A stretch of 64,000 bases of DNA from Alphaproteobacteria bacterium (lineage in GTDB: Bacteria > Pseudomonadota > Alphaproteobacteria > UBA6615): the NCBI GenBank assembly GCA_965222215.1, contig OZ244931.1, positions 259,517 through 323,516 of the forward strand, read 5' to 3'. Position numbers and translations under genes: made by a program. A model generated the notes under the pieces. That model had not been told where the DNA came from. It saw only the letters and a program-made list of their open reading frames with translations, and did not search any database. Position 1 is the stretch's first letter; every line of letters begins with the position of its first letter. Below, one piece after another: positions 2,365-17,698 of the stretch.

Positions 2365-2381
2365 CGGTCACCGGGAAATAG

Positions 2382-3050: not shown

Positions 3051-3136
3051 GTTCGCTCTGCCCCCAGTCACCCGGCTGTTCCGGGTTGTTTTTCTTTTTA
3101 TTATGACGCGGCTTTGGCACCCCGTCCAACGGGGAG

Positions 3137-4567
3137 TCAGGCAGCGGGATCGAGAGCATCTTCGCGCGCCGCCGCGGCTTCGCGCGCGATCCGGCCGTAA
3201 AAGGCCTCGCGCAGGCCGGTCGCGTTTACTTCGCACATGGCGTGCAGTTCTCCGTCGATGGCCACCTGGAAGGCGCAGTGGGCGAGGCGCGCCTGCCCGG
3301 TCTCGCTCGCCAGTTCCTCCGGGCCCATGAAGTGATGGGCGGTGATCGCGAAACGGTGTACCGCGATCTGTCCCGTGACGGTCCGGCGGATCAGGGACAA
3401 GGGCGCGTCGGGCGCCAGCCGCTTCGCCCAGTCCCACGCCGCGCGTGGGAAATGCCAAAGGAGAAGCCCGGGCGCGCGCACCACCATCCCGGCCAGCCGC
3501 GCGACCGCCTCGGCGGGGCGGTCGGCCCGGAACGTCGCGCCGGGCAGGCGGTCGAAAATCGCGTCCAGCAGCCGGGCGTCGGCGGCGGAACTTTTGGGGC
3601 TCACCGGCAGGAACTGGGCCGGGCCTTCGCCGGACTGCACGCTGGCACCGATGACGAAGCGCGAACACTCGGGGTGACCCATCAGCCAGCGGTTCTCGGC
3701 CAGCCGGCCCGCATTCGTTTCCTCGATGTTGAGCCCGCGCGCGATCTCGACCCAGAGCGCCTCCGCGTCGATCCGTCCGATGCCGTTCTCGGTCCGGCCC
3801 ACGGGTGCGACCGGCAGGAAACCGACCATACGGAACACGTCCGCATTCGCCTGCATGAAGCGCACGATGTCGCCGACCTCGTGGAGATTATCGACGGTGA
3901 CGGTGACGGTCGACGCCACCCGCAACATGTGGCCGGTCTCCCGCCGGACCCGTCGCACGAGGTCCGCGAATTGCGCGCGCAACGGCATCAGGTCGGCTTC
4001 CGTGTCGGCCTGGCGGAACGCGCGGTCGTGACGGCCGCGCTGGGTGGTGTCGATGTGGAAGCTGATTTCCTCCAGCCCGCCCTCGACCATGAACCGCTTC
4101 AGCAGGTCCGGCTCGCGCAGGAAGGTATCGCCGTGGGTCATCAGCATGGGGATCAGCTCGATCGCGCGCGCGTGGCGCAGGATCGCGATCACCTCGTCCG
4201 GATCACGCAGCGAGACCTCGCCGTCCGTCAGCTGCACGTTGCCCCAGGGACCGAGATGGCGGCGCAGCATGTCGAGCTGCGCGGTCACGCCGGCGACCGG
4301 CAGCGCCGGAATACGGTTGGCGCCGTCGTTGAGGTAGCAGCCCCGGCAGGCGAAATCGCAGCGCGGCATCGCGCCGATGGTCGCGCCGCAGCCTTCCTCG
4401 TGCCGGCCGAGCATCTGGTGGGGGGTGCGGAACTCCGGCGCGATGTCGTTCCAGACAGCATCGAGCGATGCCCGCGTTTCAGGCGGCACCGGCTCGCGGA
4501 ACAGCCGCCAAAGGCGGGCGAGCCGCACCGGTTCGCGGTGTGTGGAGGTGGTCCCGAAACGTCCCAT
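3137..4567 (-). CDS. Radical SAM domain protein of 476 aa; family not recognised.
   Basis: Canonical CxxxCxxC cluster (PRCDFACRGCY) near residue 70. SD-like GAAGAAG lies upstream of the ATG. An 86-nt gap separates it from the response regulator on the same strand. Confidence 0.75.
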   Translation of the reverse strand: MGRFGTTSTHREPVRLARLWRLFREPVPPETRASLDAVWNDIAPEFRTPHQMLGRHEEGCGATIGAMPRCDFACRGCYLNDGANRIPALPVAGVTAQLDMLRRHLGPWGNVQLTDGEVSLRDPDEVIAILRHARAIELIPMLMTHGDTFLREPDLLKRFMVEGGLEEISFHIDTTQRGRHDRAFRQADTEADLMPLRAQFADLVRRVRRETGHMLRVASTVTVTVDNLHEVGDIVRFMQANADVFRMVGFLPVAPVGRTENGIGRIDAEALWVEIARGLNIEETNAGRLAENRWLMGHPECSRFVIGASVQSGEGPAQFLPVSPKSSAADARLLDAIFDRLPGATFRADRPAEAVARLAGMVVRAPGLLLWHFPRAAWDWAKRLAPDAPLSLIRRTVTGQIAVHRFAITAHHFMGPEELASETGQARLAHCAFQVAIDGELHAMCEVNATGLREAFYGRIAREAAAAREDALDPAA

Positions 4568-4696
4568 CGTGCCGTCTTCTTCCGCCGGAGTTCACGCCCT
4601 CGATCGGCGTTCCATCAGGGGGAAGGTTAGACGGTCCGGCGGGGCAGCCGGGATACAACTTGTCGTGTCGGGTGCGTGAAGAGGCGCGCAACACAC

Positions 4697-4784
4697 CGTC
4701 ATTGCGAGCCCGAAGGGCGAAGCAATCCAGAGCGGCCTTGTCCGGGCCCTGGATTGCGTCGTTGCGTTGCTCCTCGCAATGACG
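4697..4784. repeat. Family A palindromic intergenic repeat (copy A1, ~88 bp). Ends are CGTCATTGCGAG...CTCGCAATGACG with an internal GAAGCAATCCAGAGCGG / CCTGGATTGC inverted repeat.
   Basis: Near-identical copies at ~13841, 28241, 33448, 34926 and 49995, all intergenic. Terminal and internal inverted repeats give a MITE/REP-like structure. Confidence 0.8.
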
Positions 4785-4794
4785 TTGGGCGTGC

Positions 4795-5493
4795 CTACCC
4801 CAGCGTCTTGCCGTAGCGCCAGCGCTCGATGGTCACGTCCGCGAACACGCCGCCGTAGTTCAGCGGTTCCTTCGCCCAGAATTCCTCGCAGGCTTCCAGG
4901 TCCGGGTATTCCATGATCATGAAGGAGCCGATCATCTGGCTGCCGTCGTCGTTGAACATCGGCCCGCGCGCCACGTAGCGGTCCATCACGGTGGCCTGGA
5001 ATTTGTGATGCGCGTCGGCGACAGCGTCGCGCCGTTCCTTCGCTTCCGGGCCGTCGATGGCAGTGATCGCGAACTGTTTCCAGCCGTCGGTGCGCGGGAA
5101 GGTGTCCCAGCGCAGGTCCATGGAGGACGACCAGCGCGTCACCGATGTGCTCGCGAACGCGCCCGCCCTGGCATAGCCGTCGGCGGCGATCCAGGCTTCG
5201 GCGGTTTCCTTGTCGGGCGCGTCGATCAGCGCCATCGCCCCGCGCGGCGTCTCGCCGTCGGCCTTCAGCAGCGGGCCGGTGAAACGGATGATGTCCTGGG
5301 TCCCGCGCAGGTGCGCCTGGTGGCCTTCCATCCCGGCCTCGCGCAGATCCAGCCCGCCCTCTTCCTTGAAGTAGCCCTTGCAGATCCAGCTCGAGCTTTT
5401 CTTGCGGTAGTACTCGGCGAGCTCTTCCTTCGACAGCCCGTAACGCGGATCGCCGGGTAGCGCCCCGGACGGATTGTTGGGATCTTCGGCCAT
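4795..5493 (-). CDS. YciI-like (Dabb-fold) tandem-domain protein.
   Basis: Two ~100-aa YciI-like halves. It nests inside a spurious 404-aa ORF on the same strand. Confidence 0.7.
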   Translation of the reverse strand: MAEDPNNPSGALPGDPRYGLSKEELAEYYRKKSSSWICKGYFKEEGGLDLREAGMEGHQAHLRGTQDIIRFTGPLLKADGETPRGAMALIDAPDKETAEAWIAADGYARAGAFASTSVTRWSSSMDLRWDTFPRTDGWKQFAITAIDGPEAKERRDAVADAHHKFQATVMDRYVARGPMFNDDGSQMIGSFMIMEYPDLEACEEFWAKEPLNYGGVFADVTIERWRYGKTLG

Positions 5494-5625
5494 GGTCGTC
5501 TCCTCGGAACATCGTTCTTGATTGTTGCCCGCATCCTCGCGTCACCCGCGCCACGGCGCAAGTCCGCACCCGGAACGACAGTGATGCAACGGCGGCATGG
5601 CAATCACGTCTCCGCCAACCTCGGT

Positions 5626-5717
5626 CGTCACCCCTGCGAAGGCAGGGGTCCATTGACTCAGCCGGTTGCCTGGCTGGGTATCGGCGATAATGGATACCCG
5701 CCTTCGCGGGTATGACG
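5626..5717. repeat. Family B palindromic repeat (copy B1, ~92 bp). It starts GTCACCCCTGCGAAGGCAGGGGTCCATTGAC and ends CCCGCCTTCGCGGGTATGACG.
   Basis: Both arms form perfect hairpins (CCCCTGC-GAAG-GCAGGGG and CCCGC-CTTC-GCGGG). Related copies sit at ~55878 and ~60714, with a partial copy at ~57826. Confidence 0.75.
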
Positions 5718-5799
5718 ACCGGGGGTGTGGAAGGCTCCCCCTGTGTCCCTTTCGCCCTTTCGCGGTAAGCTTCCCCCGGAACCAACGGGGAAACACACC

Positions 5800-6321
5800 A
5801 TGCCACGCAACTACCGCCGCATCGTCACCGGCCACGACTCCGACGGCCGCTCGATCCTCTGGCAGGACGGGCCGTCGCCGAACGTGGTCGAGGTTATGCC
5901 CGGCCTCAGTTCGCACGAGCTCTGGCAGACGAGCGCGCCCGCCGACAACACGGGCGACGAGGACACCGCGCTGGGCGAACTTCAGCTCGAGCCGCGCAAC
6001 CCGTCGGGCACGGTCTTCCGCATCGTCGAGTTTCCGCCGGACGAAAGCCTGAAGGACGCCGACATGGGCGAAGCCTTCGAAAAGATGCACTCCGACGCCC
6101 ACGACGCCGATTCCGACACGGCGGGCATGCACGAGACCCGCACCACCGACTACGCCATTGTCATATCCGGCGAGATCTGGGCCGTGATGGAAGAGGGCGA
6201 GACGAAGATGGAAGTCGGCGACGTGCTGATCCAGCGCGGCACCAACCACGCCTGGTCGAACCGCTCCGACAAGCCCGCCGCCGTCGCGTTCGTCCTGATC
6301 GACGCGAAGGAACGGACGTAA
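5800..6321 (+). CDS. Cupin domain protein.
   Basis: ATG at 5800 with GGGGA 9 nt upstream. The ORF-track start at 5725 lies inside repeat B1. Cupin-like beta-barrel motifs follow (GEIWAVMEEGETKMEVGDVLIQRG). Confidence 0.7.
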   Translation: MPRNYRRIVTGHDSDGRSILWQDGPSPNVVEVMPGLSSHELWQTSAPADNTGDEDTALGELQLEPRNPSGTVFRIVEFPPDESLKDADMGEAFEKMHSDAHDADSDTAGMHETRTTDYAIVISGEIWAVMEEGETKMEVGDVLIQRGTNHAWSNRSDKPAAVAFVLIDAKERT

Positions 6322-6335
6322 CAAACCCCGTCATG

Positions 6336-7450: not shown

Positions 7451-8821
7451 ATGGCCCGCACACTGATCAAGGGCGGCTGGGTCGTGTCGATGGACGATGC
7501 GATCGGCGATATCGACGGCGGCGACGTGCTGATCGAGGACGACGCGATCGTCGAGGTCGGGCGCGGCATCGACGCGGGCGACGCGGCGGTGATCGACGCC
7601 TCCGACATGATCGTTGCGCCGGGCCTCATCAACATGCACGAGCACACCTGGCAGACCGGCGTGCGCGGCACCGTGTCGAACTGGACGATGTTCGAATACT
7701 CGACGCTGATGCATGCCAAGGCGGTGCCCCACTTCACGCCCGACGACGTGCGGATCGCCAACCTGTGCGGCGCGCTCAACCAGATCAACTGCGGCACCAC
7801 GACCCTGTTCGACTGGCACCACTGCAACGCGACCACGGACCACTCCGACGCGGCGATCGATTCGCTGGAAGAGGCAGGGATCCGTGCGATCTACGGCCAC
7901 GGCCAGACCAAGACCGAATCCAGGCCGGGCGAGCCGCCGTTCAACGAGATCCCGCATTCGCGCGAGCGCGTCGAGCGCCTGCGCAAGGGCCGGTTGTCGT
8001 CCGACGACGCACTTGTCACGATGGCCATGTGCATCCAGGGGATCGGCTTCTCGGTCTGGGACTGCATCGAGCACGACGTCCGGCTGGCGAAGGACATGGG
8101 CCTGCGCTGGTCGAACCACACCGGCGCTCTCGGCATCCCGCTCTTCTCCGAGGGCTCGGTGCACAAGCTGCACGAACTTGGCCTGCTCGGCCCGGAAGCC
8201 GACTTCGTGCACGGGACCAACCTGACCGACGACGAGATCAAGCTCATCGTCGACACGGGTGGCTCGATCACCGTCGCGCCGGAGTGCGAGTGCAACTTCG
8301 GCCACGGCAATCCCGCGACCGGCCGCGTGCTGGAGGCGGGCGGCACGCCGTCCTTCGGGATCGACCTGGAGTCCAACATCTCCGGCGACATGTTCTCGGC
8401 CGTGCGTTACGGCCTGCAGTTCGAGCGCGCCATGTACACCGACGCGCGCCCGCGCCCGACCAAGGCCATGCCGGACCACCTGAAGACCCGCGTGGCGCTG
8501 GAGTGGGCGACCATCGGCAATGCTCGCGCGCTGGGCATGGAGGACCGGATCGGCTCGCTGACGCCGGGCAAGCAGGCCGACCTGATCCTCGTGCGCGGCG
8601 ACGACATCAACACCTGCCCGGTGCACGACCCGGTGCAGACGCTCGTGTTCATGGCGACGCCCCACAACATCGACACGGTGTTCATCGCCGGCGAAGTGCG
8701 CAAACGCGACCGCCAGCTCGTCTACCCGGAAGCTACGCTGCGCCAGAAGCTTGAGGAGCTGACCGCCTCGGGCCGCCGCATCCTGAAGGATGCCGGTGTC
8801 TTCGACGAGGCGGCGGCGTAG
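7451..8821 (+). CDS. Amidohydrolase family protein (cytosine/chlorohydrolase-like metal-dependent hydrolase).
   Basis: HxH metal-binding motif (INMHEHTWQ) and the overall TIM-barrel amidohydrolase pattern over 456 aa. Confidence 0.85.
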   Translation: MARTLIKGGWVVSMDDAIGDIDGGDVLIEDDAIVEVGRGIDAGDAAVIDASDMIVAPGLINMHEHTWQTGVRGTVSNWTMFEYSTLMHAKAVPHFTPDDVRIANLCGALNQINCGTTTLFDWHHCNATTDHSDAAIDSLEEAGIRAIYGHGQTKTESRPGEPPFNEIPHSRERVERLRKGRLSSDDALVTMAMCIQGIGFSVWDCIEHDVRLAKDMGLRWSNHTGALGIPLFSEGSVHKLHELGLLGPEADFVHGTNLTDDEIKLIVDTGGSITVAPECECNFGHGNPATGRVLEAGGTPSFGIDLESNISGDMFSAVRYGLQFERAMYTDARPRPTKAMPDHLKTRVALEWATIGNARALGMEDRIGSLTPGKQADLILVRGDDINTCPVHDPVQTLVFMATPHNIDTVFIAGEVRKRDRQLVYPEATLRQKLEELTASGRRILKDAGVFDEAAA

Positions 8822-8848
8822 TAGGAGCAGTTGCGGTGGCAGGTCTTC

Positions 8849-8965
8849 CAACCCTCTCCTTCCACGGGGAGGAGAGGGTGGCGAGCACCGCGAGCCGGGT
8901 GAGGTGGGCGCCCCGGCTATCAGCTTGCAAACCCCACCTCACCCCGACCCTCTCCGCCCCCCTAT
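8849..8965. repeat. Family C repeat (copy C1). Core is CAACCCTCTCC...GGAGAGGGTGGCGAGCA(C/A)CGCGAGCCGGGTGAGG...CCTCACCCCGACCCTCTCC. A perfect hairpin TTGTCGCC-CTTGC-GGCGACAA follows.
   Basis: About 75% identity to the element at 10187-10312. The terminal inverted repeat is CCCTCTCC/GGAGAGGG. Confidence 0.6.
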
Positions 8966-9025
8966 TTGTCGCCCTTGCGGCGACAAGCGACGCAAAGGGT
9001 GGGCAGAGAGGGAGATGACCGCACC

Positions 9026-10201
9026 ATGACCCCTAACCCCTGGCTCGTGCTCGGCGCGCTGTTCCTGGCGCGCACGTCCCTGGGATACCAGTTCCAGACG
9101 GTGGGCTCGGTCGCGCCGGTGCTCGTCGAGGACCTCGGTATCGACTTCACCCGGGTCGGCACCCTGATCGGATTGTTCAGCGCGCTCGGTGTTATCACCG
9201 CGCTGCCGGCGGGGCAGTTCGGGCGCCGGTTCGGGGAGAAGCGCGTCGTGCTCGCCGGCCTTGCCCTGATGGCGCTGGGCGGATTTGTCACCGGGATCGC
9301 CGGGAGTTTCGAAATCGCCGCGCTCGGCCGCCTGATCGTCGGCGTCGGCGGGGTCGCGCTCACGGTCACGATGGTCAAGCTGGTCGGTGATCTGTTCGAG
9401 GGCCCGCAGGTCGTCACCGCGATGGCGATCCTGATGAACTCGTGGCCCGTCGGCATCGTGATCGGGCTGTTCTCCCAGGGCGCCATGGCCGAGGCGTGGG
9501 GCTGGCAGGCGGTCTTTGTCACCGCCGGGGTCGGCTCGCTGGGCGGCATGGTGCTGATCTGGCTGCTCTACAAGCCCCAGAACAGTGCCGCGCCGGGAGA
9601 AGCTGCCGCACGTACTGGGCGCATCTCGTTCCGCGAAGGCCTGCTCGTCTCCATCGCCGGGGTGACATGGACCATGTTCAACGGCGCGTTCCTGGTCATC
9701 ATGGCCTTCGGGCCGGCGATGCTCGTCGCCCAGGGCGACGACGTGGTTGAGGCGGGCTCGCTCATCGCGGTCGCGACCATTGTCTACATGTTCGCCATCC
9801 CGCTGGGCGGCTGGCTGTCCTCGCGCCTGGGGCGGCCCACGCTCGTGATGCTGGTGACGTTCGCCCTGGCCGGGGTCACCGTCGCACTGGTGCCCTTCGC
9901 CGAGGCGCAACTGCTGCTGTTTGCGCTGGCGGGCATCTTCGTCGGGGTGCCGACGGGCAACGTGATGGCCCTGACGGTGGAAACCGTACGCCCCGAAAAC
10001 CGCAACATCGGCACCGGCCTCTACTACACCTGGCACTATATCGGGCTGGCCAGTATTCCGGCGCTGGCGGGCTGGGCCGTCGACCTGACGGGCGATGCCT
10101 CCGCGCCGATGTTTGTCGGTGCGGCCTGTTCGGGCCTGGCGATCTGCCTGCTGCTGGTCCTGCGCACGGTGCAGGGGCGCATGCACAACCCTCTCCCATA
10201 G
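9026..10201 (+). CDS. MFS transporter.
   Basis: Twelve TM helices with typical MFS loops (GRLIVGVGG). ATG at 9026 with GGAGA upstream. The last codons (HNPLP, TAG stop) are supplied by repeat C2. Confidence 0.85.
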   Translation: MTPNPWLVLGALFLARTSLGYQFQTVGSVAPVLVEDLGIDFTRVGTLIGLFSALGVITALPAGQFGRRFGEKRVVLAGLALMALGGFVTGIAGSFEIAALGRLIVGVGGVALTVTMVKLVGDLFEGPQVVTAMAILMNSWPVGIVIGLFSQGAMAEAWGWQAVFVTAGVGSLGGMVLIWLLYKPQNSAAPGEAAARTGRISFREGLLVSIAGVTWTMFNGAFLVIMAFGPAMLVAQGDDVVEAGSLIAVATIVYMFAIPLGGWLSSRLGRPTLVMLVTFALAGVTVALVPFAEAQLLLFALAGIFVGVPTGNVMALTVETVRPENRNIGTGLYYTWHYIGLASIPALAGWAVDLTGDASAPMFVGAACSGLAICLLLVLRTVQGRMHNPLP

Positions 10202-10312
10202 GGAGAGGGTGGCGAGCAACGCGAGCCGGGTGAGGGGTTGCAGTGGTTCGGTGTATCCTCGTTGAGAATTTAACCCCTCACCCCAACCCCTCTCCCTATG
10301 GGAGAGGGGCTC
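10187..10312. repeat. Family C repeat (copy C2). It overlaps the MFS stop and forms the 5' leader of the GT2 gene.
   Basis: CAACCCTCTCCCATAGGGAGAGGGTGGCGAGCAACGCGAGCCGGGTGAGGGG...CCCCTCACCCCAACCCCTCTCCCTATGGGAGAGGGG. Confidence 0.6.
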
Positions 10313-10328
10313 TTGGCGGCTTGGTTGG

Positions 10329-11033
10329 ATGACGAACAAACCCTCTCTCGGCATTGTCATTCCCGCGCTGAATGCGGCGGCGGGCTTGCCGGCATGCCTC
10401 GGGGCACTGGGAGAGGGTCATGAAAGTTTCGACATGGATGTCATCGTTGCCGATGGCGGCTCGACGGATGGCACCACCGACATCGCCCGGGATAATGGCG
10501 CGCGGGTCATCGACACGCCTCGCGGCCGGGGTGTGCAGCTTGCCGCCGGTGCCGCCACCGTCGCCGGAGACTGGCTGCAGTTTCTCCATGCCGACACGGT
10601 GCTGGAGCCGGGCTGGGCGGCCGCGCTGCAGGAGTTCATGGAGCGCCCGGACGCTGTGCACCGGGCGGCCTATTTCAGGTTCGCGCTCGACGACGACCAT
10701 CCGGGCGCGCGACGGATCGAACGTCTCGTCGCGTGGCGCTGCCGCCGATTCGCGTTGCCTTACGGCGACCAGGGCCTCGCGCTCTCGCGGGCCCTGTACG
10801 ACGAGCTGGGCGGTTTCGCGCCGATGCCGCTGATGGAAGACGTCGATCTTGTGAGGCGCATCGCCCGCCGGCATGGCAAGGGCGCACTGGCCGGGCTCGC
10901 CGCGGCAGCAACGACTTCGGCAGCGCGCTACAGGAGCGGCGGTTACTGGCGGCGTCCCGGCAGGAACCTTTTCTGCCTGATGCTGTACCGCTTCGGAGTG
11001 CCCGTGGAGACCATCGCGAGGATCTACCGGTGA
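10329..11033 (+). CDS. GT2-like glycosyltransferase. Recalled as TIGR04283, the 'rSAM/selenodomain-associated transferase 2'.
   Basis: GT-A motifs (IVIPALN, DGGSTDGT, DxD-like EDVD). Its stop overlaps the next gene's start (GTGA). Confidence 0.8.
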   Translation: MTNKPSLGIVIPALNAAAGLPACLGALGEGHESFDMDVIVADGGSTDGTTDIARDNGARVIDTPRGRGVQLAAGAATVAGDWLQFLHADTVLEPGWAAALQEFMERPDAVHRAAYFRFALDDDHPGARRIERLVAWRCRRFALPYGDQGLALSRALYDELGGFAPMPLMEDVDLVRRIARRHGKGALAGLAAAATTSAARYRSGGYWRRPGRNLFCLMLYRFGVPVETIARIYR

Positions 11034-11647
11034 GCCTGCCGCACCATCTGGTGGTGTTCGCCCGCGCACCGCGCCGGGACACCGTGAAACGGCGCCTGGC
11101 GGCGGATATCGGCGCGGCCGCCGCGCTGCATTTCTACCGGAACACTCTCAACGATGTGGTCCGCCGGTTGGGGGACGATCCGCGCTGGACGACCTGGCTG
11201 TCGGTCACGCCCGACCGCGATGCGGCGGTTAACGCCCTGTGGCCGGCAGTGCCGGGGCTGCGCCGCATCCCGCAGGGCGGCGGAGGGCTCGGCGAACGCA
11301 TGGCGCGCCCGAGCCGGCTGCTGCCGCCGGGCCCGGTGGTGATCGTCGGGAGTGACATCCCGGACGTGGCGCCCGGGCATATCCGCGATGCCTTCGCGGC
11401 GCTGGGCCGCCATGACATGGTGTTCGGCCCGGCATCTGACGGCGGCTACTGGCTCGTCGGTGCGCGCCGCCGGCCGGCGGTGCCGAAGGACCTGTTCGCA
11501 AATGTGCGCTGGAGCACGGAACACGCGCTCGATGACACCGTTGCAGGCCTGCCGAAGCGCTTCCGGGTGGCGCGGATCGACACGCTCCACGATGTCGATA
11601 CGGGCGCGGACTGGCGGGCGTGGCGTGCGCGCAACCGCCGCTCATAA
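11030..11647 (+). CDS. DUF2064 nucleotidyltransferase-like protein. Recalled as TIGR04282, the 'rSAM/selenodomain-associated transferase 1'.
   Basis: GTG start overlaps the upstream stop. N-terminus HLVVFARAPRRDTVKRRL matches the DUF2064 signature (VVFAKAP..G.VKTRL). It sits inside a longer, over-extended ORF. Confidence 0.75.
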   Translation: MSLPHHLVVFARAPRRDTVKRRLAADIGAAAALHFYRNTLNDVVRRLGDDPRWTTWLSVTPDRDAAVNALWPAVPGLRRIPQGGGGLGERMARPSRLLPPGPVVIVGSDIPDVAPGHIRDAFAALGRHDMVFGPASDGGYWLVGARRRPAVPKDLFANVRWSTEHALDDTVAGLPKRFRVARIDTLHDVDTGADWRAWRARNRRS

Positions 11648-11726
11648 CAATGCCGTGACGTTGGGGTAGGGTTGTTCCCAACGGGTCGCCGCCCGCTACA
11701 ATCGCCGCGACTTCGAACGAGGCGTC

Positions 11727-12767
11727 ATGGAATCGATCTACTACGTGCTGTCGTGGCTCTGCCACCGGCGTTGCGACCATTGCTACGACACCCGCTTCCG
11801 CCCCTATGTGCGTGAGGAGAAGGCCACCGTGGTCAACGAGGCGCTGGCCAGCCATGCGCGGATTGTCGCCAACCTGCCCGACCGCATGACCTACCGGGAG
11901 ACCCCCGACGGCCCGGAACAGCCGGGGCGGATCATCCTGTCCGGCGGTGAGGTGCTGCTCGACGAGATCCGCGAACCGGTGCTCTACCCGGTAATGGACC
12001 TGCTCCGCGAGAAGTACGCGGACACCGGCGGGGTCCGGGTGGTGGTCCAGACCACCGGCGACCTCGTCACCGAAAAGATCGTCGACGAACTGCTCGACCA
12101 TGGCATGTGGCAGGTCTCGATTACCGGCATGGACGATTTCCATGTCGGTCATGAGGGCGAAAAGCGCCTCCCGCTGATCGGGAAGCTGACCGCCATGTTC
12201 GAGGCGGCCGGACTCAGCCCGACTGGGCGCCGCCACGACGGCACCGACGCGCGCGGCACGGTGACACCGGTCTATTCCTTCATGGGCGCGAACCCGGAAG
12301 AATGGATCGGCCCGATCTGGCCGCGTGGGCGCGCGTGGGAGAATGGGCTGTCCTCGGCAACGCTGGACGACAATTTCTGCAACCGCTGGTCGGGCGGGCT
12401 CAATTTTATGGAGCACGGCAAGGTCGGCTCCGAGGTGTCCATCGAGCCCAACGGCAACGTCTATCCCTGCTGCCTGAAGACGAAAGCGCCGCTCGGGAAC
12501 CTGACCGAGGAAAAGCTGGTCGATATTCTCGACAGCCTGCGCGGCCATCCGGCCTTTGACGCGATCAACGCCGGCGCCCCGGAGCGGATGGGCGAGGCCT
12601 TTGGCTGGGACGAGGCGACCTTCCTGCGCCACAGCGAAACGAAGACCCCGTCGGGCGAGACCTACCGCAATCTTTGCATCGGCTGCGATCGCTTCCACGA
12701 GCAGGTGCTCGGCCCCCTGATCGACGGCCTGCGCCGCGAGCGGCTGGCGCGCCGGGCGGCGGCATGA
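11727..12767 (+). CDS. Radical SAM / Cys-rich domain protein. Recalled as TIGR04167 and ArsS-like, the arsenosugar-biosynthesis radical SAM family.
   Basis: CxxxCxxC at residues 12-19 (CHRRCDHC). C-terminal Cys-rich segment with YPCC and CIGCDRF. SD GAGG before the ATG. Stop overlaps the next start (ATGA). Confidence 0.85.
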   Translation: MESIYYVLSWLCHRRCDHCYDTRFRPYVREEKATVVNEALASHARIVANLPDRMTYRETPDGPEQPGRIILSGGEVLLDEIREPVLYPVMDLLREKYADTGGVRVVVQTTGDLVTEKIVDELLDHGMWQVSITGMDDFHVGHEGEKRLPLIGKLTAMFEAAGLSPTGRRHDGTDARGTVTPVYSFMGANPEEWIGPIWPRGRAWENGLSSATLDDNFCNRWSGGLNFMEHGKVGSEVSIEPNGNVYPCCLKTKAPLGNLTEEKLVDILDSLRGHPAFDAINAGAPERMGEAFGWDEATFLRHSETKTPSGETYRNLCIGCDRFHEQVLGPLIDGLRRERLARRAAA

Positions 12768-13834
12768 CCTCCGGGACTGGCCGGATCGAGCGGGTCCGCG
12801 AGGCGCTGGCCGCGCGCCTGCGCGTGCCGCTGGAATACCTCACGCCGCTGCCGGATACAGGCCTCGCCCACGATCACGTGTCCATCGGCGAGACCGGGAC
12901 CCTCGCCCGCGTGCCGAAGCAGTCCCAGATGGGCCTGGAGGCGTCGGCGAACCTCGCCTACCAGGCGGCCTGCTTCGAGCGCGCGAGCGCCAGCGGCCAT
13001 GCGCCGCGCCTGCACGACGTCCTGCCGCCGGACGGCGCCCTGCCGATGGGCGCGCTCGTGGTCGAACAGATCGAGGGGCGGCCGCTGTCGTTGCCGGACG
13101 ATCTCGATGCGCTGGCCGACGCGCTGGCGGCGATTCATGCCCTGCCGCTTCCGCCCAGGGATGCGCGCGCGCCGCTCAAGAACCCGGCCGATCCCATCGC
13201 CGACACCTTCGCCGAAGTGACGGGGCAGTCGGCGTTCCTCGCCGATGCTGGGCTCGATCCCGACGCCGAAGCCCAGATCCGGGCCGAGCTCGAAGCGGCG
13301 CGCGCCACGCTCGCCGGGCCGGATCGCCCGCCGGTGTCCCTGATCGCGTTCGACGCGCATCCCGGGAACTACCTGGTCGACGGGACCGGCAAGGCGATCC
13401 TCGTCGACCTGGAAAAGGCCCGCTACGGTGCGGCCCCGTTCGATCTCGCCCATGCGAGCCTCTACACCTCGACGACCTGGGACGTGGACAGCCGCGCCGT
13501 GTTGTCACGCGATGACGTGCAGCGATTTCACACGCGCTGGCTGGCGACCGTTCCGGGCGAGCTTGCGGATGCCAGCGAAGCCTGGCTACTGCCCCTGCGG
13601 CGGATCATGTGGCTGTGGTCGGTCACCTGGTGCGCCAAGTGGCGGGTGCAGTCCGCGCCCGCGGCCCGGACGGACACGACCGAAAACTGGTCGGCGGACC
13701 TGAGCGAGGACGGGCTTGTCGCCCATGTCGCTGACCGGGTCGCCGACTATCTCGCCCCCGAGACCATTGCACAGGTGCGCGCCGACTGGTCCGGTACGGC
13801 CCCGGTGACGCCCGTGGCCGCGCTGGTGCGATGA
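12764..13834 (+). CDS. Aminoglycoside/choline-kinase-like phosphotransferase (APH/CHK fold).
   Basis: Brenner motif FDAHPGNYLV and Mg-binding DLE (ILVDLEKA). ATG overlaps the rSAM stop. Confidence 0.8.
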   Translation: MTSGTGRIERVREALAARLRVPLEYLTPLPDTGLAHDHVSIGETGTLARVPKQSQMGLEASANLAYQAACFERASASGHAPRLHDVLPPDGALPMGALVVEQIEGRPLSLPDDLDALADALAAIHALPLPPRDARAPLKNPADPIADTFAEVTGQSAFLADAGLDPDAEAQIRAELEAARATLAGPDRPPVSLIAFDAHPGNYLVDGTGKAILVDLEKARYGAAPFDLAHASLYTSTTWDVDSRAVLSRDDVQRFHTRWLATVPGELADASEAWLLPLRRIMWLWSVTWCAKWRVQSAPAARTDTTENWSADLSEDGLVAHVADRVADYLAPETIAQVRADWSGTAPVTPVAALVR

Positions 13835-13840
13835 AGCACC

Positions 13841-13927
13841 CGTCATTGCGAGGAGCGGAGCGACGAAGCAATCCAGTCTCACCGTCTTGTCCGCTCTGGA
13901 TTGCTTCACCTTCGGTTCGCAATGACG
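13841..13927. repeat. Family A repeat (copy A2).
   Basis: CGTCATTGCGAGGAGCGGAGCGACGAAGCAATCCAG...CTGGATTGCTTCACCTTCGGTTCGCAATGACG. Confidence 0.8.
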
Positions 13928-13994
13928 ACGGAATGACATTGAGGAGTGCCAGCGCTCGGCCATAGGTCGGGATGCCGGGTGAAAGGACAAAGTC

Positions 13995-15188
13995 ATGAAA
14001 CGTACTTTTTTCGCGATGCTTGCCATGTTGTTCGTTTGGGCCTCGCCCGCGCTGGCGCAGGACTGGGACGATGTTGTGGCGAAGGCCAGGGGTCAGACCG
14101 TTTTCTGGAATGCCTGGGCCGGGGACGAACGGATCAACGCCTATATCGCCTGGGCGGGCGAGCAGGTGCGCGAGCGCTACGGCGTCGAGGTGCAGCACGT
14201 AAAACTGTCGGACACGGCCGAAGCTGTCGCCCGCGTCGTTGCCGAGAAGGCGGCCGGGCGTACCGAGGCCGGTTCGGTCGACCTCATCTGGATCAACGGC
14301 GAGAACTTCGCGTCCATGAAACGCAACGGCCTGCTGTTCGGTCCTTGGACCCAGGACGCGCCGAACTACGCGAACGTCGACACTGAAAACAAGAAGACCA
14401 CCACCGTCGACTTCACGGTGCCCGTCGACAATCTGGAGGCGCCATGGGGCATGGCGCAGTTCGTGTTCATGCACGACACCGCCCATATGAGGGACACGCC
14501 GGGCTCGGTATCCGCGCTGCTCGAATGGGCGAAGGCGAACCCGGGTCGCTTCGCCTATCCGCAGCCACCGAACTTCCTCGGCACGACCTTCCTGAAACAG
14601 GCCCTGATCGAGCTGGCGCCGGACGCCGACGCCCTGCTGAAGCCTGTCGCCGACTTTGACGGCGTGACTGCGCCGCTGTGGGCCTATCTCGACGACCTGC
14701 ACCCGCACATGTGGCGGCGCGGCGAGGTGTTCCCCCAGAACGGTCCGGCGCTGCACCGCCTGCTCGACGACGGCGAGGTCTCCATCGCCATGTCCTTCCA
14801 CCCCGCCGAGGCGTCGGGCCTGATCGCCGAGGACAAGCTTCCGGACACAGTGCGGACCTTCGTGCTCGACAACGGAACCATCGGCAATACCCATTTCGTT
14901 GCGATTCCGTTCAACGCGAAGGCGAAGGAGGGCGCGATGGTACTGGCGAACTTCCTGATGTCGCCCGAAGCCCAGGCCCGCAAACAGGGCCCGGACGTCT
15001 GGGGCGACTTCACCGTGCTGGCCGTCGACCGGCTGCCGGATACGGCGCAGGCCGCCTTCGACGGGCTCGACATGGGCATCGCCACCCTGTCGCCGACGGA
15101 ACTCGGCGCGACCCGGCTCGAGCCGCACCCGTCCTGGGTCGCGGCGCTGGAGGACGAATGGGCGAAACGCTATGCGAGCGGGCGGTAG
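13995..15188 (+). CDS. ABC transporter periplasmic substrate-binding protein, YnjB-like.
   Basis: Signal peptide (MKRTFFAMLAMLFVWASPALA). Sequence resembles YnjB/TbpA-family binding proteins. Confidence 0.85.
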   Translation: MKRTFFAMLAMLFVWASPALAQDWDDVVAKARGQTVFWNAWAGDERINAYIAWAGEQVRERYGVEVQHVKLSDTAEAVARVVAEKAAGRTEAGSVDLIWINGENFASMKRNGLLFGPWTQDAPNYANVDTENKKTTTVDFTVPVDNLEAPWGMAQFVFMHDTAHMRDTPGSVSALLEWAKANPGRFAYPQPPNFLGTTFLKQALIELAPDADALLKPVADFDGVTAPLWAYLDDLHPHMWRRGEVFPQNGPALHRLLDDGEVSIAMSFHPAEASGLIAEDKLPDTVRTFVLDNGTIGNTHFVAIPFNAKAKEGAMVLANFLMSPEAQARKQGPDVWGDFTVLAVDRLPDTAQAAFDGLDMGIATLSPTELGATRLEPHPSWVAALEDEWAKRYASGR

Positions 15189-15207
15189 GGGGCATCCTTC
15201 CATGTCA

Positions 15208-15290
15208 TGCGCGGACTTGATCCGCGCATCTCGTCTCGGTCTGTGCGGAGATGCCCGGGTCAAGCCCGGGCATGACGATGACGGACGGGG
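15208..15290. repeat. Family D hairpin pair (copy D2). Hairpins ATGCGCGGA-CTTGA-TCCGCGCAT and ATGCCCGGG-TCAAG-CCCGGGCAT are separated by 21 bp.
   Basis: Two perfect 9-bp stems whose loops are reverse complements. The element lies between ynjB and ynjC. Confidence 0.4.
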
Positions 15291-15293
15291 TTC

Positions 15294-16994
15294 GTGACCC
15301 ATCGTATCTTCTCCCTCCGCTGGTTCCCGGCGCTGACGCTGGTGCTTCTGCTCGCACCCGTTGCAGCCGGGCTGATCGGCACGATCCTGCCGGCGCTCGG
15401 TTACCTCCCTGCGCTCGGCGGTAACTCCTTCAGTCTCGAACCCTGGCGGATGCTGTTCGCCGCACCGGGTATCCGGGAGTCCGTCCGCCTGTCGGTGTTG
15501 ACGGGGCTCGGGGTCTCCGCATTCTCGCTCGCCGTGGTGATCCTGTTCGTTGCGGGGTGGCACGGCACCCGGTCCTTCGCCCGGGTCCAGCGGCTGCTGT
15601 CGCCGCTGCTGTCGATCCCCCATGTGACCGTTGCCTTCGGCATCGCGTTCCTGCTCGCCCCGTCCGGCTGGCTGTTCCGGCTGACCTCGCCCTGGCTGAC
15701 GGGCTTCGAGCGGCCGCCGGACATGATCATCGTGCAGGACCCGGACGGGCTGGCCTTCATGGCCGGGCTGGCGCTCAAGGAAATCCCGTTCCTGTGCCTG
15801 ATGACCTTGGCCGCCATCGGCCAGGTCGATGCGGTCCGCACCCGGACCATGGCCCGCACGCTCGGCTACGGCACCACCACGGCCTGGCTCAAGGCCGTGT
15901 TCCCTCTGGTCTACCGACAGATCCGGCTGCCTGTCTTCGCGGTGCTGGCGTTTTCGGCCTCGGTCGTGGACGTGGCCATCGTGCTCGCGCCCTCGACCCC
16001 GCCGCCGCTGGCGGTGCAACTGCTGCGCTGGTTCAACGATCCCGAACTCGCCATGCGCTTCGTGGCGTCCGCGGGCGCGGTGCTGCAGCTTGCGGTGGTG
16101 CTGGCTGTGTTCGCGCTGTGGTGGCTCGGGGAGCGCGCGGTCGCATGTTTAGGACGAATCTGGATCCGCCGGGGGCACCGGGGCGTGCGCGATCGCGCCG
16201 TGCGCCTGGGTGCGGCGGGCGCGCTGACGGTCAGTTTCCTTGCGGCCTTCCTCGGGCTTCTGAGCATGGCGGTCTGGTCGGTGGCCGGGCGCTGGCGGTT
16301 CCCGGACGGGCTGCCGTCGCGGTTCTCCGTCGACCCGTGGATCGACAATGCGCCGCGCCTTGGCGAGGCCGCACTGAACACGGCGACCGTCGGGCTGGCG
16401 GCCGCGCTGGTGGGGCTTGTCCTGGCTCTCGGCTGCCTGGAGAACGAGACCCGGTTCGGGCGGCGCGCCACGAACCGCGCGCTTCTGCTGCTCTATATCC
16501 CGCTGCTGGTGCCCCAGATCGCGTTCCTGTTCGGGGGGCAGGTTTTGCTGGTGATGAGCGGCCTCGACGGCGCGTGGATCGCCGTGGCCTGGGCGCACCT
16601 GGTATTCGTTCTGCCCTATGTCTTCCTGTCGCTCGCCGATCCCTACCGGGCGTGGGACGAGCGCTACGCCCGTGCCGCGCGCTGTCTCGGGGCCTCGCCG
16701 CTTCGGGTGTTCTGCCGGGTGAAGCTGCCGATGCTGTTGCGGCCGGTCCTTGTCGCTGTGGCGGTCGGTTTCGCGGTCTCCGTGGGCCAGTACCTGCCGA
16801 CGCTGTTCGCGGGTGCGGGGCGCGTCGACACGCTGACGACGGAAGCGGTCGCGCTGGCCTCGGGCGCCGACCGGCGCGCCATCGGGGTGTATGCGCTGGC
16901 CCAGATGTTCCTGCCGTTTCTCGCCTTCGCGCTCGCCACGGCCGTCCCGACCTGGCTCTTCCGGAACCGTCGCGGACTGCGGGTCACCGCTTGA
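15294..16994 (+). CDS. ABC transporter permease with two fused permease domains, YnjC-like.
   Basis: 566 aa with ~12 TM helices and two binding-protein-dependent transport (EAA-like) regions. GTG start. Confidence 0.85.
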   Translation: MTHRIFSLRWFPALTLVLLLAPVAAGLIGTILPALGYLPALGGNSFSLEPWRMLFAAPGIRESVRLSVLTGLGVSAFSLAVVILFVAGWHGTRSFARVQRLLSPLLSIPHVTVAFGIAFLLAPSGWLFRLTSPWLTGFERPPDMIIVQDPDGLAFMAGLALKEIPFLCLMTLAAIGQVDAVRTRTMARTLGYGTTTAWLKAVFPLVYRQIRLPVFAVLAFSASVVDVAIVLAPSTPPPLAVQLLRWFNDPELAMRFVASAGAVLQLAVVLAVFALWWLGERAVACLGRIWIRRGHRGVRDRAVRLGAAGALTVSFLAAFLGLLSMAVWSVAGRWRFPDGLPSRFSVDPWIDNAPRLGEAALNTATVGLAAALVGLVLALGCLENETRFGRRATNRALLLLYIPLLVPQIAFLFGGQVLLVMSGLDGAWIAVAWAHLVFVLPYVFLSLADPYRAWDERYARAARCLGASPLRVFCRVKLPMLLRPVLVAVAVGFAVSVGQYLPTLFAGAGRVDTLTTEAVALASGADRRAIGVYALAQMFLPFLAFALATAVPTWLFRNRRGLRVTA

Positions 16995-17050
16995 CTTCGA
17001 TCGGCGCCAGCGGCCCACTACGGCCAACCCATTCAACGGAGAGTTCCACC

Positions 17051-17698
17051 ATGAAACTTTACGGATACTGGCGGTCGCTGGCCGCGTTCCGCGTGCGCAT
17101 CGCCCTCAACCTCAAGGGCCAGCCCTTCGAGGTCATCTCGACAGACCTCATCAAGGGCGACCAGTTTGACCCCGAGTATCTGAAGCTCAACCCGCAGGGC
17201 GTGGTGCCGACACTCATCACCGACGACGGTGTGGCGCTCGGTCAGTCGATGGCGATCCTTGAATATCTCGACGAGGCCTATCCCGAGCCGCCGCTGATGC
17301 CGACCGACCCCGTGGCCCGCGCCCGGGTGCGCGCGCTGTGCATGATTACGGTGGCCGACACCCACCCGCTGGTGGTGCCGCGCATCCGCAAGTACATCAC
17401 CCAGGATTTGGGCCACAGCGAGGACGAGCTGAACGCCTGGATCGGCAACTGGACGAAGAAGGGCCTCGAAGCGATCGAGGCCCATCTCGTCGCCCATGCG
17501 GGCACCTACAGCGAGGGCGATGAGATCAGTCTCGGCGACCTCTGCGTCGTGCCGCAGGTCGGCGCCGCGGCGCTGTTCAAGGTGCCACTCGACCCCTATC
17601 CGACGGCCAAGCGCATCTTCGACACCTGCATGGACAACCCGGCCTTCTTCGACGCCCGCCCGCAGGCCCAGCCGGACTTCCCCGAAGACATGAAGTAG
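17051..17698 (+). CDS. maiA: Maleylacetoacetate isomerase (GST zeta class).
   Basis: N-terminus MKLYGYWRS...VPTL and the GST fold. SD GGAGAG 9 nt before the ATG. The ORF-track frame is over-extended. Confidence 0.85.
   Translation: MKLYGYWRSLAAFRVRIALNLKGQPFEVISTDLIKGDQFDPEYLKLNPQGVVPTLITDDGVALGQSMAILEYLDEAYPEPPLMPTDPVARARVRALCMITVADTHPLVVPRIRKYITQDLGHSEDELNAWIGNWTKKGLEAIEAHLVAHAGTYSEGDEISLGDLCVVPQVGAAALFKVPLDPYPTAKRIFDTCMDNPAFFDARPQAQPDFPEDMK

Follow-up and report, generated by a model that had tools for sequence, protein, structure and literature searches.

ArsS, the radical SAM enzyme of arsenosugar clusters, converts dimethylarsenite to DDMAA by adenosylation (PMC13598754). In the ArsS-type clusters of Acinetobacter portensis (pJNE5-X3) and Thiodictyon (pTs417) a radical SAM gene stands alongside genes of two transferase families, TIGR04283 (GT2-like) and TIGR04282 (DUF2064). 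Methionine salvage proceeds either by MtnP or by MtnN together with MtnK, which is also an APH-fold kinase, and LicB, LicA, LicC and LicD follow a transporter, kinase, nucleotidyltransferase, transferase logic. For YnjBCD, a putative ABC transporter encoded in the Escherichia coli ydjXYZ-ynjABCDEF region, part of the y-ome, no function was found in the literature searched.

The window (the whole stretch of 64,000 nucleotides analysed here) contains a four-gene core, G1 to G4, in which members of the same two transferase families are followed by a radical SAM gene and a kinase gene (Table 1). The initial annotation described these as four coupled genes, and direct reading bears this out: the GTG of G2 overlaps the G1 stop codon within a GTGA (11030-11033), the ATG of G4 overlaps the G3 stop codon within an ATGA (12764-12767), and the G3 ATG is preceded at 5-8 nt by GAGG within the 79 nt gap, which also includes a weak sigma-70-like promoter match at 11675-11702. 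An independent gene call on the identical ENA contig gives the same four starts and stops, and the G1-G4 order is kept in 17 other genomes at 53-93% protein identity. These are real coding genes, and the overlaps suggest that they are co-translated.

Table 1. Positions of the genes and non-coding elements of the conserved block.
Feature	Coordinates	Strand	Description
Amidohydrolase	7451..8821	+	456 aa, PRK08204 subfamily; first block gene in the window's clade
MFS transporter	9026..10201	+	391 aa with ATG start at 9026; ORF opens at 8966
Palindromic element	10190..10309		20-nt perfectly complementary arms, with nested arms; in the MFS-G1 gap
G1	10329..11033	+	234 aa; GT2-like transferase, TIGR04283 family
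G2	11030..11647	+	205 aa, GTG start; DUF2064/TIGR04282, CofC/MobA-like nucleotidyltransferase-fold
G2-G3 intergenic gap	11648..11726	+	79 nt; GAGG Shine-Dalgarno; seam between modules M1 and M2
G3	11727..12767	+	346 aa; radical SAM enzyme, twitch/SPASM-type C-terminal domain
G4	12764..13834	+	356 aa; choline-kinase/APH-fold small-molecule kinase
REP-like nested palindrome	13841..13927		inserted between G4 and the YnjB-family gene
YnjB-family periplasmic substrate-binding protein	13995..15188	+	397 aa, signal peptide
YnjC-like fused double ABC permease	15294..16994	+	566 aa; PF00528, synteny
Glutathione S-transferase (GST)	17051..17698	+	215 aa, GST_N domains; last conserved block gene in the clade

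G1-G4 form the core of a conserved block (7451-17698) of nine genes, in the order amidohydrolase, MFS, GT2, DUF2064, radical SAM, kinase, YnjB-like, YnjC-like and GST, an order that is complete only in one clade. The amidohydrolase scores 525 bits against NF006056 (cutoff 391) and 151 bits, below cutoff, against the 5'-deoxyadenosine deaminase model NF005557; it is a superfamily relative of the 5'-deoxyadenosine, MTA and 8-oxoguanine deaminases and its synteny extends to L089 and, within the 17 clade genomes L002-L018, to 12; in the remaining five the contig is too short or the gene is missing. The MFS gene has weak family matches only, is likewise syntenic in the clade, and in L089 shares 4 nt with the GT2 gene. 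At the other end, the binding protein scores 541.7 bits against NF008633 (cutoff 203) and is 44% identical to E. coli YnjB, the permease is 33% identical to YnjC over 523 aa, and no ATPase gene follows the permease in the cluster of the window's clade. In 13 of the genomes L002-L018, and also in L001 and L089, the GST gene comes next after the permease; among the four without it, three contigs end first and L017 extends ~3 kb beyond the permease with no GST match there.

The initial annotation placed the operon between two bracketing repeats and did not connect it to the YnjBCD-type importer, into which it continues. Both palindromes sit inside the longer block and relatives without them are contiguous. 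The upstream element is demonstrable only as a local 20-nt inverted repeat, not as a dispersed one, and is absent from relatives whose MFS and G1 genes abut; at least six copies of the downstream palindrome's family occur within the window, and the gap in which it lies is merely ~13-35 nt in relatives. In repeat-less relatives the overlap of MFS and G1 is 4 nt and G4 is separated from the binding-protein gene by ~30 nt, so the unit comprises more than four genes, and the flanking palindromes are insertions into gaps of the conserved block.

G3 contains the cysteine motif C12-x3-C16-x2-C19, YPCC at 247-249 and CIGCDRF at 317-323, all invariant among 21 homologs; these, like HPGN and DLE in G4, had been correctly picked out in the initial annotation, which took G3 to be ArsS. 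With the threshold relaxed to E<=10, however, the NCBIfam search still gives no match of G3 to TIGR04167; the scores of two genuine ArsS proteins in the same library are 471 and 436 bits. Pairwise BLASTP of G3 with ArsS yields a single 49-residue hairpin match, profile-profile comparison (hhalign) a probability of 9%, and the C-terminal domain is of the SPASM/twitch type (PF13186 above its gathering score) and not of the ArsS type. By these sequence comparisons G3-ArsS orthology is refuted. An arsenosugar operon built around an orthologous ArsS is accordingly hardly credible, even though G1 and G2 pass models to which NCBI gives the name 'arsenosugar biosynthesis glycosyltransferase' and G3 combines an N-terminal CX3CX2C with cysteines in its C-terminal domain. 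Those family names are based on gene neighbourhood and not on assays, and the pair is found in many contexts without any ArsS. A search of the window finds no ArsM-like, ArsS or MTA phosphorylase gene, and the lack of an arsM-type methyltransferase had been observed at the outset.

All curated families score below 27 bits against G3, and from 1.84 billion representatives a profile of its own family retrieves no more than 390 proteins, a sharp separation from other families. Structure comparison assigns the fold to the SPASM/twitch class. G3 belongs to a twitch/SPASM radical SAM family of its own, tightly conserved and without a curated model. Like BtrN, SpeY, PqqE, anSME and EpeE/YydG it has the N-terminal CX3CX2C, together with a G-x4-C hairpin and C-terminal CxxC that may hold an auxiliary cluster, but only five conserved C-terminal cysteines compared with seven in full SPASM domains. 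The structures most similar to it are those of epimerases, dehydrogenases and peptide cross-linkers: the closest small-molecule relatives are BtrN, SpeY, DesII and BlsE, and the top neighbours include the peptide-modifying EpeE, ChlB, PqqE, anSME, SuiB and CteB. The latter group, weak NCBIfam matches to peptide maturases, and near-obligate adjacency to the binding-protein gene could be taken to mean that G3 matures a protein or peptide, either as a RiPP enzyme or by acting on the neighbouring binding protein, much as anSME serves sulfatases and QhpD an amine dehydrogenase. We consider this very improbable, because the gaps beside G3 (79 nt upstream and ~50-160 nt downstream in relatives) are too short to accommodate a conserved small ORF, the mature binding protein has neither cysteine nor a C/S-x-P-x-R motif, E. 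coli YnjB works without such an enzyme encoded nearby, and G3 conserves a single auxiliary-cluster Cys set. The missing space for a precursor peptide and the cysteine-free binding protein instead favour a small-molecule substrate.

The family assignments made initially for G1 and G2 are upheld by searches with curated models, G1 scoring 204 bits against TIGR04283 (cutoff 182) and 64.8 bits against PF00535, and G2 146.7 bits against TIGR04282 (cutoff 134) and 109 bits against PF09837. G2 also has a weak CofC match (E=1e-6) and matches PDB 3CGX (E=6e-16), although we know of no demonstrated activity for DUF2064. CofC acts on phosphorylated substrates, so the resemblance of G2 to it likewise favours a small molecule.

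As had been proposed from its motifs, G4 is a kinase of the choline-kinase/APH fold that retains its catalytic residues: FDAHPGN (D197, N202) and VDLE (D215) are present, and R49, D197, N202 and D215 are invariant among 30 homologs. The Pfam APH search suggested earlier does not recover it, G4 itself having no Pfam match and failing both kinase models, while PF01636 matches 19 and PF01633 six of 30 family members. Its predicted structure (pLDDT 87.5) has choline kinases as the best Foldseek matches (E=2e-10); they are its best matches in sequence too, and its D-x-E...F-D motif aligns with that of choline kinases. There is no match to the methylthioribose kinase model TIGR01767, and the 50 best Foldseek hits include no MtnK.

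The choline-kinase likeness of G4, with the PF01633 matches in its family, raises the possibility of a Kennedy/Lic-type salvage of head groups, in which G4 would phosphorylate an imported amino-alcohol-like compound, the DUF2064 protein would form a CDP- or NDP-alcohol, G1 would pass it to a lipid or glycan, and the radical SAM enzyme would tailor the head group; in Bosea and E. coli the last step would fall to a YnjF-type CDP-alcohol phosphatidyltransferase. Such an enzyme, 50.5% identical to E. coli YnjF, is encoded directly before G3 in Bosea, E. coli has ynjF next to ynjBCD, along with two DedA genes, and the gene logic is that of LicB/A/C/D. We nonetheless think this reading unlikely: among the surveyed loci a YnjF-like gene adjoins G3 only in Bosea, G1 is of the GT-A glycosyltransferase type and not a LicD or CDP-alcohol transferase, G4 fails both Pfam kinase models, and an MTA phosphorylase beside the same pair elsewhere points to ribose-1-phosphate-type substrates, not amino alcohols.

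Gene neighbourhoods were surveyed in 80 genomes and 80 metagenome contigs, of which 60 species genomes were informative for G3 and 43 metagenome loci, centred on the kinase, for G4. Two modules, each found repeatedly on its own in other bacteria, are combined at the window locus. The first (M1) comprises the GT2-like, DUF2064 and kinase genes, and the second (M2) a G3-family gene directly before a YnjB/YnjC(/YnjD)-type ABC importer. The pair adjoins the kinase in 36 of the 43 loci, G3 being present in just 17, so the kinase, initially singled out as not explained by the arsenosugar paradigm, is no odd addition but the pair's commonest partner; it is widespread as an operon member but not one already characterised. 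GT2-DUF2064-kinase occurs alone in 13 of 38 kinase loci, as it does in Skermanella, L088 and L090. A YnjB-like gene immediately follows G3 or G4 in 47 of the 60 G3 genomes, usually with a fused permease and an ATPase of ~210 aa behind it, and M1 is entirely absent from most G3 operons of Gammaproteobacteria, Betaproteobacteria and Vicinamibacterales (31 of the 60), leaving the importer alone with G3. Because many G3 loci lack M1, and many M1 loci lack G3 (and the binding protein as well), the modules need not constitute one linear pathway.

This separability would suit two unrelated functions, with G3 and the importer forming a catabolic or salvage unit (in which G3 might, for example, be a dehydrogenase or lyase of the twitch type with a cyclitol, a sugar or an organosulfur compound as its substrate), M1 a separate biosynthesis, and their adjacency in the window's clade being inherited synteny. 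The restriction of the full nine-gene order to that clade, the small-molecule enzymes closest to G3 in structure, and the TauD, TauE and GST genes that adjoin G3 in some lineages all fit, yet we regard this as rather improbable. The association of the pair with G3 has arisen separately three times or more, in arrangements that differ and with divergent pair subtypes: in Bosea the pair lies inside the transporter operon, between the binding-protein and permease genes, and in Hyphomicrobiales and Rhizobiales GAS113 a pair 32-33% identical to that of the window lies upstream of G3. Moreover, a YnjB-like gene follows GT2-DUF2064-kinase even in loci without G3.

We tentatively favour a single small-molecule pathway running from the importer through G3, G4 and G2 to G1, to which we give a probability of about 45%. 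The importer would take up a small polar substrate, perhaps an oxyanion, metalloid or sulfur compound given the class of the binding protein and the recurring thiol-redox neighbours, and G3 would transform it by SAM-radical chemistry, possibly adding a 5'-deoxyadenosyl group by analogy with ArsS, HpnH and MqnE, although the nearest G3 structures belong to other reaction types. G4 would phosphorylate the resulting sugar or alcohol, G2 would convert the phosphate ester to an NDP- or NMP-activated form as does its relative CofC, and G1 would move the activated group onto an acceptor. The product may be exported by the MFS protein, and deamination of an adenosine-type intermediate or by-product is a possible role for the amidohydrolase. 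The locus would then represent an uncharacterised radical SAM/kinase/nucleotidyltransferase/glycosyltransferase/importer pathway, in hundreds of bacterial species.

With ArsS-type clusters the locus shares the transferase pair and an accompanying radical SAM gene, and G3-type and genuine ArsS clusters have DUF547, GST, oxyanion-type transporters and a DedA(VTT)/FAD-oxidoreductase fusion in common (the fusion in Bosea, L081 and L147, and likewise in Acinetobacter and Burkholderia). The arsenosugar comparison made initially thus survives at the level of the transferase pair and accessory genes and not for G3, which is unrelated to ArsS; the window also differs in having a choline-kinase/APH-fold kinase in place of ArsM and MTA phosphorylase, and a YnjBCD-type importer as part of the unit. 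MTA phosphorylase is encoded directly upstream of TIGR04283-TIGR04282 in the radical SAM-less plasmid clusters of B. glumae and B. thailandensis and close to the pair in the Acinetobacter arsS cluster, and in none of the kinase-bearing loci examined. This complementarity, seen in three plasmid contexts, suggests that G4 would deliver the 1-phosphate that MTA phosphorylase would provide in ArsS-type and Burkholderia clusters.

The E. coli ynj region resembles the locus in its binding protein and permease, and the YnjD-like ATPase of YnjBCD has counterparts in other G3 lineages; the Bosea G3 operon recalls it further through its YnjF orthologue and a DedA-domain protein. The E. coli region has no G3, GT2/DUF2064 pair or kinase, and instead encodes YdjY (4Fe-4S), YnjA (AhpD-like) and YnjE (sulfurtransferase). 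The salvage routes of MtnK/MtnP, AmgK/MurU, LicA/LicC/LicD and CofC/CofD differ in that none of G1, G2 and G4 reaches the cutoff of any characterised family. Like M1, however, they combine an APH-fold kinase, a nucleotidyltransferase-fold protein and a transferase, as in the window encoded downstream of an uptake system, and kinase and phosphorylase alternate beside the GT2/DUF2064 pair as MtnK and MtnP do in methionine salvage.

Four forward-strand genes encode a GT2-like transferase (G1), a DUF2064 protein (G2), a radical SAM enzyme (G3) and a kinase of the choline-kinase/APH fold (G4). Direct reading of the junctions agrees with the initial annotation of these ORFs: G1 and G2 overlap by 4 nt (GTGA at 11030–11033), G2 and G3 are separated by a 79-nt gap ending GAGG-N5-ATG, and G3 and G4 share an ATGA at 12764–12767. 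Independent gene calls on the identical ENA contig match all of these gene boundaries exactly. The order of the four is kept in 17 other species genomes with protein identities of 53–93%, and they are therefore real genes. The motifs previously listed, CX3CX2C, YPCC and CIGCDRF in G3 and HPGN and DLE in G4, are all present and are invariant in the family alignments.

Genes and palindromes of the operon and its surroundings, in window coordinates
Feature	Coordinates	Strand	Description
Hybrid histidine kinase	ends 2364	+	PAS, HisKA, HATPase and receiver domains; runs off the window start
LuxR-type response regulator	about 2382–3100	-	adjoins the second radical SAM gene, with the histidine kinase
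Second radical SAM gene	3137–4567	-	476 aa; CDFACRGC motif
Two overlapping ORFs	4592–6324	-	404 and 260 aa; between second radical SAM and amidohydrolase genes
Amidohydrolase	7451–8821		precedes G1
MFS transporter	9026–10201		precedes G1
Upstream palindrome	10190–10309		
G1, GT2-like transferase	10329–11033	+	234 aa
G2, DUF2064 protein	11030–11647	+	205 aa; GTG start
G3, radical SAM enzyme	11727–12767	+	346 aa
G4, kinase	12764–13834	+	356 aa
Downstream palindrome	13841–13927		
YnjB-family binding protein	13995–15188		NF008633 (PRK11622), 541.7 bits (cutoff 203); 44% identity to E. coli YnjB
YnjC-like fused permease	15294–16994		33% identity to YnjC
GST	17051–17698		conserved downstream gene
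Generic ABC ATPase	38009–38596	-	YnjD-like match, 28–31% identity

The conserved unit exceeds G1–G4, and includes the amidohydrolase and MFS genes on the 5′ side and the binding-protein, permease and GST genes on the 3′ side. The four genes had been described as an operon bracketed by repeats, but both palindromes lie within gaps of this larger unit and are insertions rather than operon borders, because in a relative (locus L089) the MFS and GT2 genes have 4 nt in common, and from the end of the kinase gene it is 35 nt to the start of the gene for the binding protein. The downstream palindrome is a member of a dispersed REP-like family with the core GAGCGACGAAGCAATCCAG, present at 13858–13876 and also at 4712, 28291, 33465, 34979 and 50046; at least six copies are observed in the window, versus 0.06 expected by chance. 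The upstream palindrome could not be confirmed as a dispersed repeat within the window. An ATPase gene never follows the permease gene in the window's clade, the GST gene being there instead; other lineages have an ~210-aa YnjD-like ATPase after the permease, and the sole YnjD-like match in the window is the generic ABC ATPase ~21 kb away. All-against-all clustering of ORFs from 170 loci found no conserved partners beyond the genes named here and the lineage-specific TauE, TauD, GST, DUF547 and VTT/FAD.

G3 has the CX3CX2C motif (residues 12–19) and partial TIM-barrel fold of the radical SAM superfamily. It had been assigned to TIGR04167 (ArsS), an assignment that we reject: there is no match to this model even at E≤10 (family cutoff 300 bits), as compared to 471 and 436 bits for two plasmid-borne annotated ArsS proteins searched as positive controls with the same library. 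BLASTP against ArsS aligns just a 49-residue hairpin (E=0.001), and profile-profile comparison (hhalign) returns a probability of 9%. The C-terminal region, where an ArsS-type Cys-rich domain was sought, instead matches the Pfam SPASM model (PF13186, 30.6 bits; gathering score 21.5), and the NCBIfam search gives 20 weak matches, all to SPASM/twitch families and each below 27 bits. The only conserved auxiliary-cluster cysteines are C218, C248, C249, C317 and C320, a number predicted to be enough for one auxiliary cluster (twitch-like) and short of the seven-Cys SPASM pattern.

The G3 family is thus far without a curated model or a solved relative recognizable by sequence, and is new. Searches of the PDB with the G3 sequence and profile matched troponin and calmodulin only, which we judge to be spurious, and a radical SAM/SPASM protein encoded beside GT2/DUF2064 genes in Miltoncostaea proved not to be homologous. 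G3 is unlikely to be a maturase of peptides or of the binding protein: its surroundings leave no space for a precursor ORF, and neither a cysteine nor a sulfatase-type motif occurs in the mature binding protein. Identity within the family is ~60% from Alphaproteobacteria to Acidobacteriota, and with relatives in at least 569 species genomes (one genome per species) this strongly conserved family lends itself well to the search for new radical SAM chemistry.

As a single sequence G4 has no match in Pfam (E≤10), NCBIfam or the PDB, and its placement needed an alignment of homologs and a structure model. Among 30 close homologs 19 match PF01636 (APH) and six match PF01633 (choline kinase), and the model (pLDDT 87.5) has choline kinases as its best Foldseek matches (E=2e-10, TM about 0.55). 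The bilobal kinase fold, the catalytic Asp/Asn of the Brenner motif and the metal-binding Asp place it in the ELK fold; R49, D197, N202 and D215 are invariant in the family alignment, and FDAHPGN and VDLE motifs are present. The earlier description of an APH/choline-kinase-like enzyme with intact catalytic motifs is thus upheld by the Foldseek matches and by the invariance of D197, N202 and D215. No specific similarity of G4 to MtnK was found.

G1 and G2 are members of TIGR04283 and TIGR04282, as first proposed, each exceeding its HMM cutoff. G1 scores 204 bits (cutoff 182, a narrow margin) over model positions 1–221 of 221, with an arsS-linked Acinetobacter member scoring 274 bits on the same model, and it also matches PF00535. 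G2 scores 146.7 bits (cutoff 134) and 109 bits on PF09837 (DUF2064), matches the putative nucleotide-diphospho-sugar transferase 3CGX in the PDB (E=6e-16), and weakly resembles CofC. There is no ArsS or ArsM-like gene within the 64-kb window; the lack of an arsM-type methyltransferase, noted from the outset, is repeated in a negative tblastn search with an ArsM-like protein, and a SAM-methyltransferase motif regex (a weak test) finds no match in the window. Both G1 and G2 are named 'arsenosugar biosynthesis glycosyltransferase' by the NCBI annotation pipeline, and at least one paper has taken an orphan pair, from annotation alone, as evidence of arsenic (arsenosugar) detoxification (PMC13077682). 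Literature searches for DUF2064 and TIGR0428x found no functional study. The name over-reaches, because the pair of adjacent GT2 and DUF2064 genes is mostly found with genes for a kinase and for a binding protein of the YnjB type, and the radical SAM enzyme that joins them in this window is unrelated to ArsS.

Two neighbourhood surveys show how these genes are assorted. The first, centred on G3, covered 80 loci from the at least 569 species genomes with a relative, and 60 loci were informative. In 31 of these G3 is followed by a YnjB/YnjC/YnjD-type transporter only (SAR86, OM182, Pseudohongiella, Burkholderiales, Vicinamibacterales and others); 12 have the full GT2-DUF2064-G3-kinase-binding protein order, four have the pair and G3-binding protein without the kinase, and at 13 G3 has none of these partners. 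The second survey, of metagenome contigs, was centred on the kinase and took in 80 loci out of 343 relatives. The pair adjoins the kinase gene at 36 of 43 informative loci and a binding-protein gene lies directly 3′ at 38/63, G3 is between DUF2064 and the kinase at only 17 kinase-centred loci, and GT2-DUF2064-kinase stands without further partners at 13; Skermanella rosea and locus L090 have GT2-DUF2064-kinase-binding protein without a radical SAM gene. Two modules are thus fused in the window: M1 (GT2, DUF2064 and kinase) and M2 (G3 with a YnjB/YnjC-type importer). The kinase, initially regarded as an unexplained fourth gene, is indeed part of the operon but is a regular partner of the pair.

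An M1-type pair and M2 have been joined independently elsewhere. In Bosea (L083) the pair is placed between the binding-protein and permease genes, and the operon also encodes a DedA(VTT)/FAD-oxidoreductase fusion and, with 50.5% identity to E. coli YnjF, a CDP-alcohol phosphatidyltransferase. The pair that precedes G3 in Hyphomicrobiales and Rhizobiales GAS113 shares just 32–33% identity with that of the window; of these pairs the one from GAS113 was scanned, and it clears both cutoffs by a wide margin, with 255 bits on TIGR04283 and 183 bits on TIGR04282.

The second radical SAM gene, which may belong to the same system as the operon, bears a weak resemblance to the tetraether lipid synthase Tes and to TrsS, a selenoprotein (56 and 50 bits, far below cutoffs), and its product shares 29% identity (E=4e-35) with the radical SAM protein encoded in a TIGR04282-DUF547 cluster of a Roseomonas plasmid. 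It is kept upstream of the operon at L005, L008, L014, L016 and L109, with a DUF547 gene after it. There is no DUF547 gene in the window, and in relatives one is located at the position of the histidine kinase and regulator genes (1–3100). The 404- and 260-aa ORFs are conserved at 11 and 16 related loci and have no Pfam match; parts of them match short stretches of the window (~50000, 55900, 60800), suggesting embedded repeat sequence. At L013, L014, L016, L017 and L018 a TauE/SafE-type anion exporter gene is found between the binding-protein and permease genes (L015 ends first). Parvibaculum-type loci (L033, L042, L044, L058, L072) have GST and/or TauD-family dioxygenase genes 5′ of G3, and the YnjB-type transporter is absent. 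Both insertions are specific to their lineages and are suggestive of sulfur chemistry.

Reference contexts for ArsS were taken from plasmid records annotated by PGAP, with genes listed here in their order around the pair. Acinetobacter portensis has arsS, a VTT/FAD fusion, DUF547, TIGR04283, TIGR04282, an ArsM-like methyltransferase and a phosphate transporter, with mtnP nearby, and Thiodictyon has GT2, sterol desaturase, arsS and TIGR04282, with a GST gene ~1.5 kb beyond and three small genes between. B. glumae and B. thailandensis have DUF6969, MTA phosphorylase, TIGR04283, TIGR04282 and an FAD oxidoreductase without a radical SAM gene (VTT/FAD fusion, DoxX, thioredoxin/CcdA and MFS are close by), and Roseomonas has TIGR04282, DUF547, two radical SAM genes, a PhnD-type ABC importer and a metallophosphoesterase. 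From these contexts it follows that the pair partners with several radical SAM families, oxyanion-type transporters and thiol-redox proteins. Beside the pair is either an MTA phosphorylase or a kinase, and no MTA phosphorylase is present in any kinase-bearing locus surveyed.

ArsS adds a 5′-deoxyadenosyl group to dimethylarsenite (PMC13598754). An ArsS-type nucleoside and a phosphorylase would yield a 5-substituted ribose 1-phosphate, a compound naturally suited to a nucleotidyltransferase-fold protein and, after it, a glycosyltransferase. In methionine salvage, methylthioribose kinase makes a 1-phosphate from the free sugar, and an APH-fold kinase could supply the same kind of 1-phosphate. 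From this equivalence of phosphorylase and kinase we infer, by analogy, that M1 may act as a route from kinase to nucleotidyltransferase to transferase, with M2 importing a compound and converting it by radical SAM chemistry. This reading is weakened by G4 resembling choline kinases most, rather than MtnK, and by the occurrence of one module without the other at many loci. The likeness of G4 to choline kinases, together with the YnjF link, instead argues for the main rival, a Kennedy/Lic-type head-group route. We give a probability of roughly 15% to the most far-reaching reading, in which a compound brought in by the YnjBCD-type transporter would undergo a radical SAM reaction of a new kind, catalyzed by G3 (e.g. 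transfer of a SAM-derived ribosyl unit onto a metalloid or sulfur species), and G4, DUF2064 and GT2 would turn the product into a new class of element-bearing ribosides or lipids. If so, these would be produced by heterotrophs that are abundant in the sea and in soil (SAR86, OM182, uncultured Rhodospirillaceae, Bosea, Vicinamibacterales), a first function would be gained for YnjBCD/YnjF, an orphan system of E. coli, and 'arsenosugar glycosyltransferase' names would be too narrow.

The superfamilies of all domains were already known, as was the GT2/DUF2064/radical SAM theme from ArsS clusters; new, besides the G3 family itself, are the near-obligate coupling of that family to an orphan transporter (YnjBCD), the regular presence of a kinase as third member beside the pair, and the nine-gene fusion seen in the window. 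Literature searches for YnjB/YnjC and for ydjY/ynjA/ynjF found no functional study. E. coli K-12 (L087, 1833401–1841403) has the order ydjX(DedA)-ydjY(4Fe-4S)-ydjZ(DedA)-ynjA(AhpD-like)-ynjBCD-ynjE(sulfurtransferase) with ynjF alongside, and YnjB, YnjC, YnjD, YnjF and a DedA domain are common to this region and the G3 operon of Bosea. This orphan cluster of E. coli therefore resembles a form of the G3 system that lacks the radical SAM gene. The near-obligate G3-YnjBCD link, with YnjF and a DedA protein added in Bosea, offers an experimental handle on a long-unknown E. coli gene cluster.
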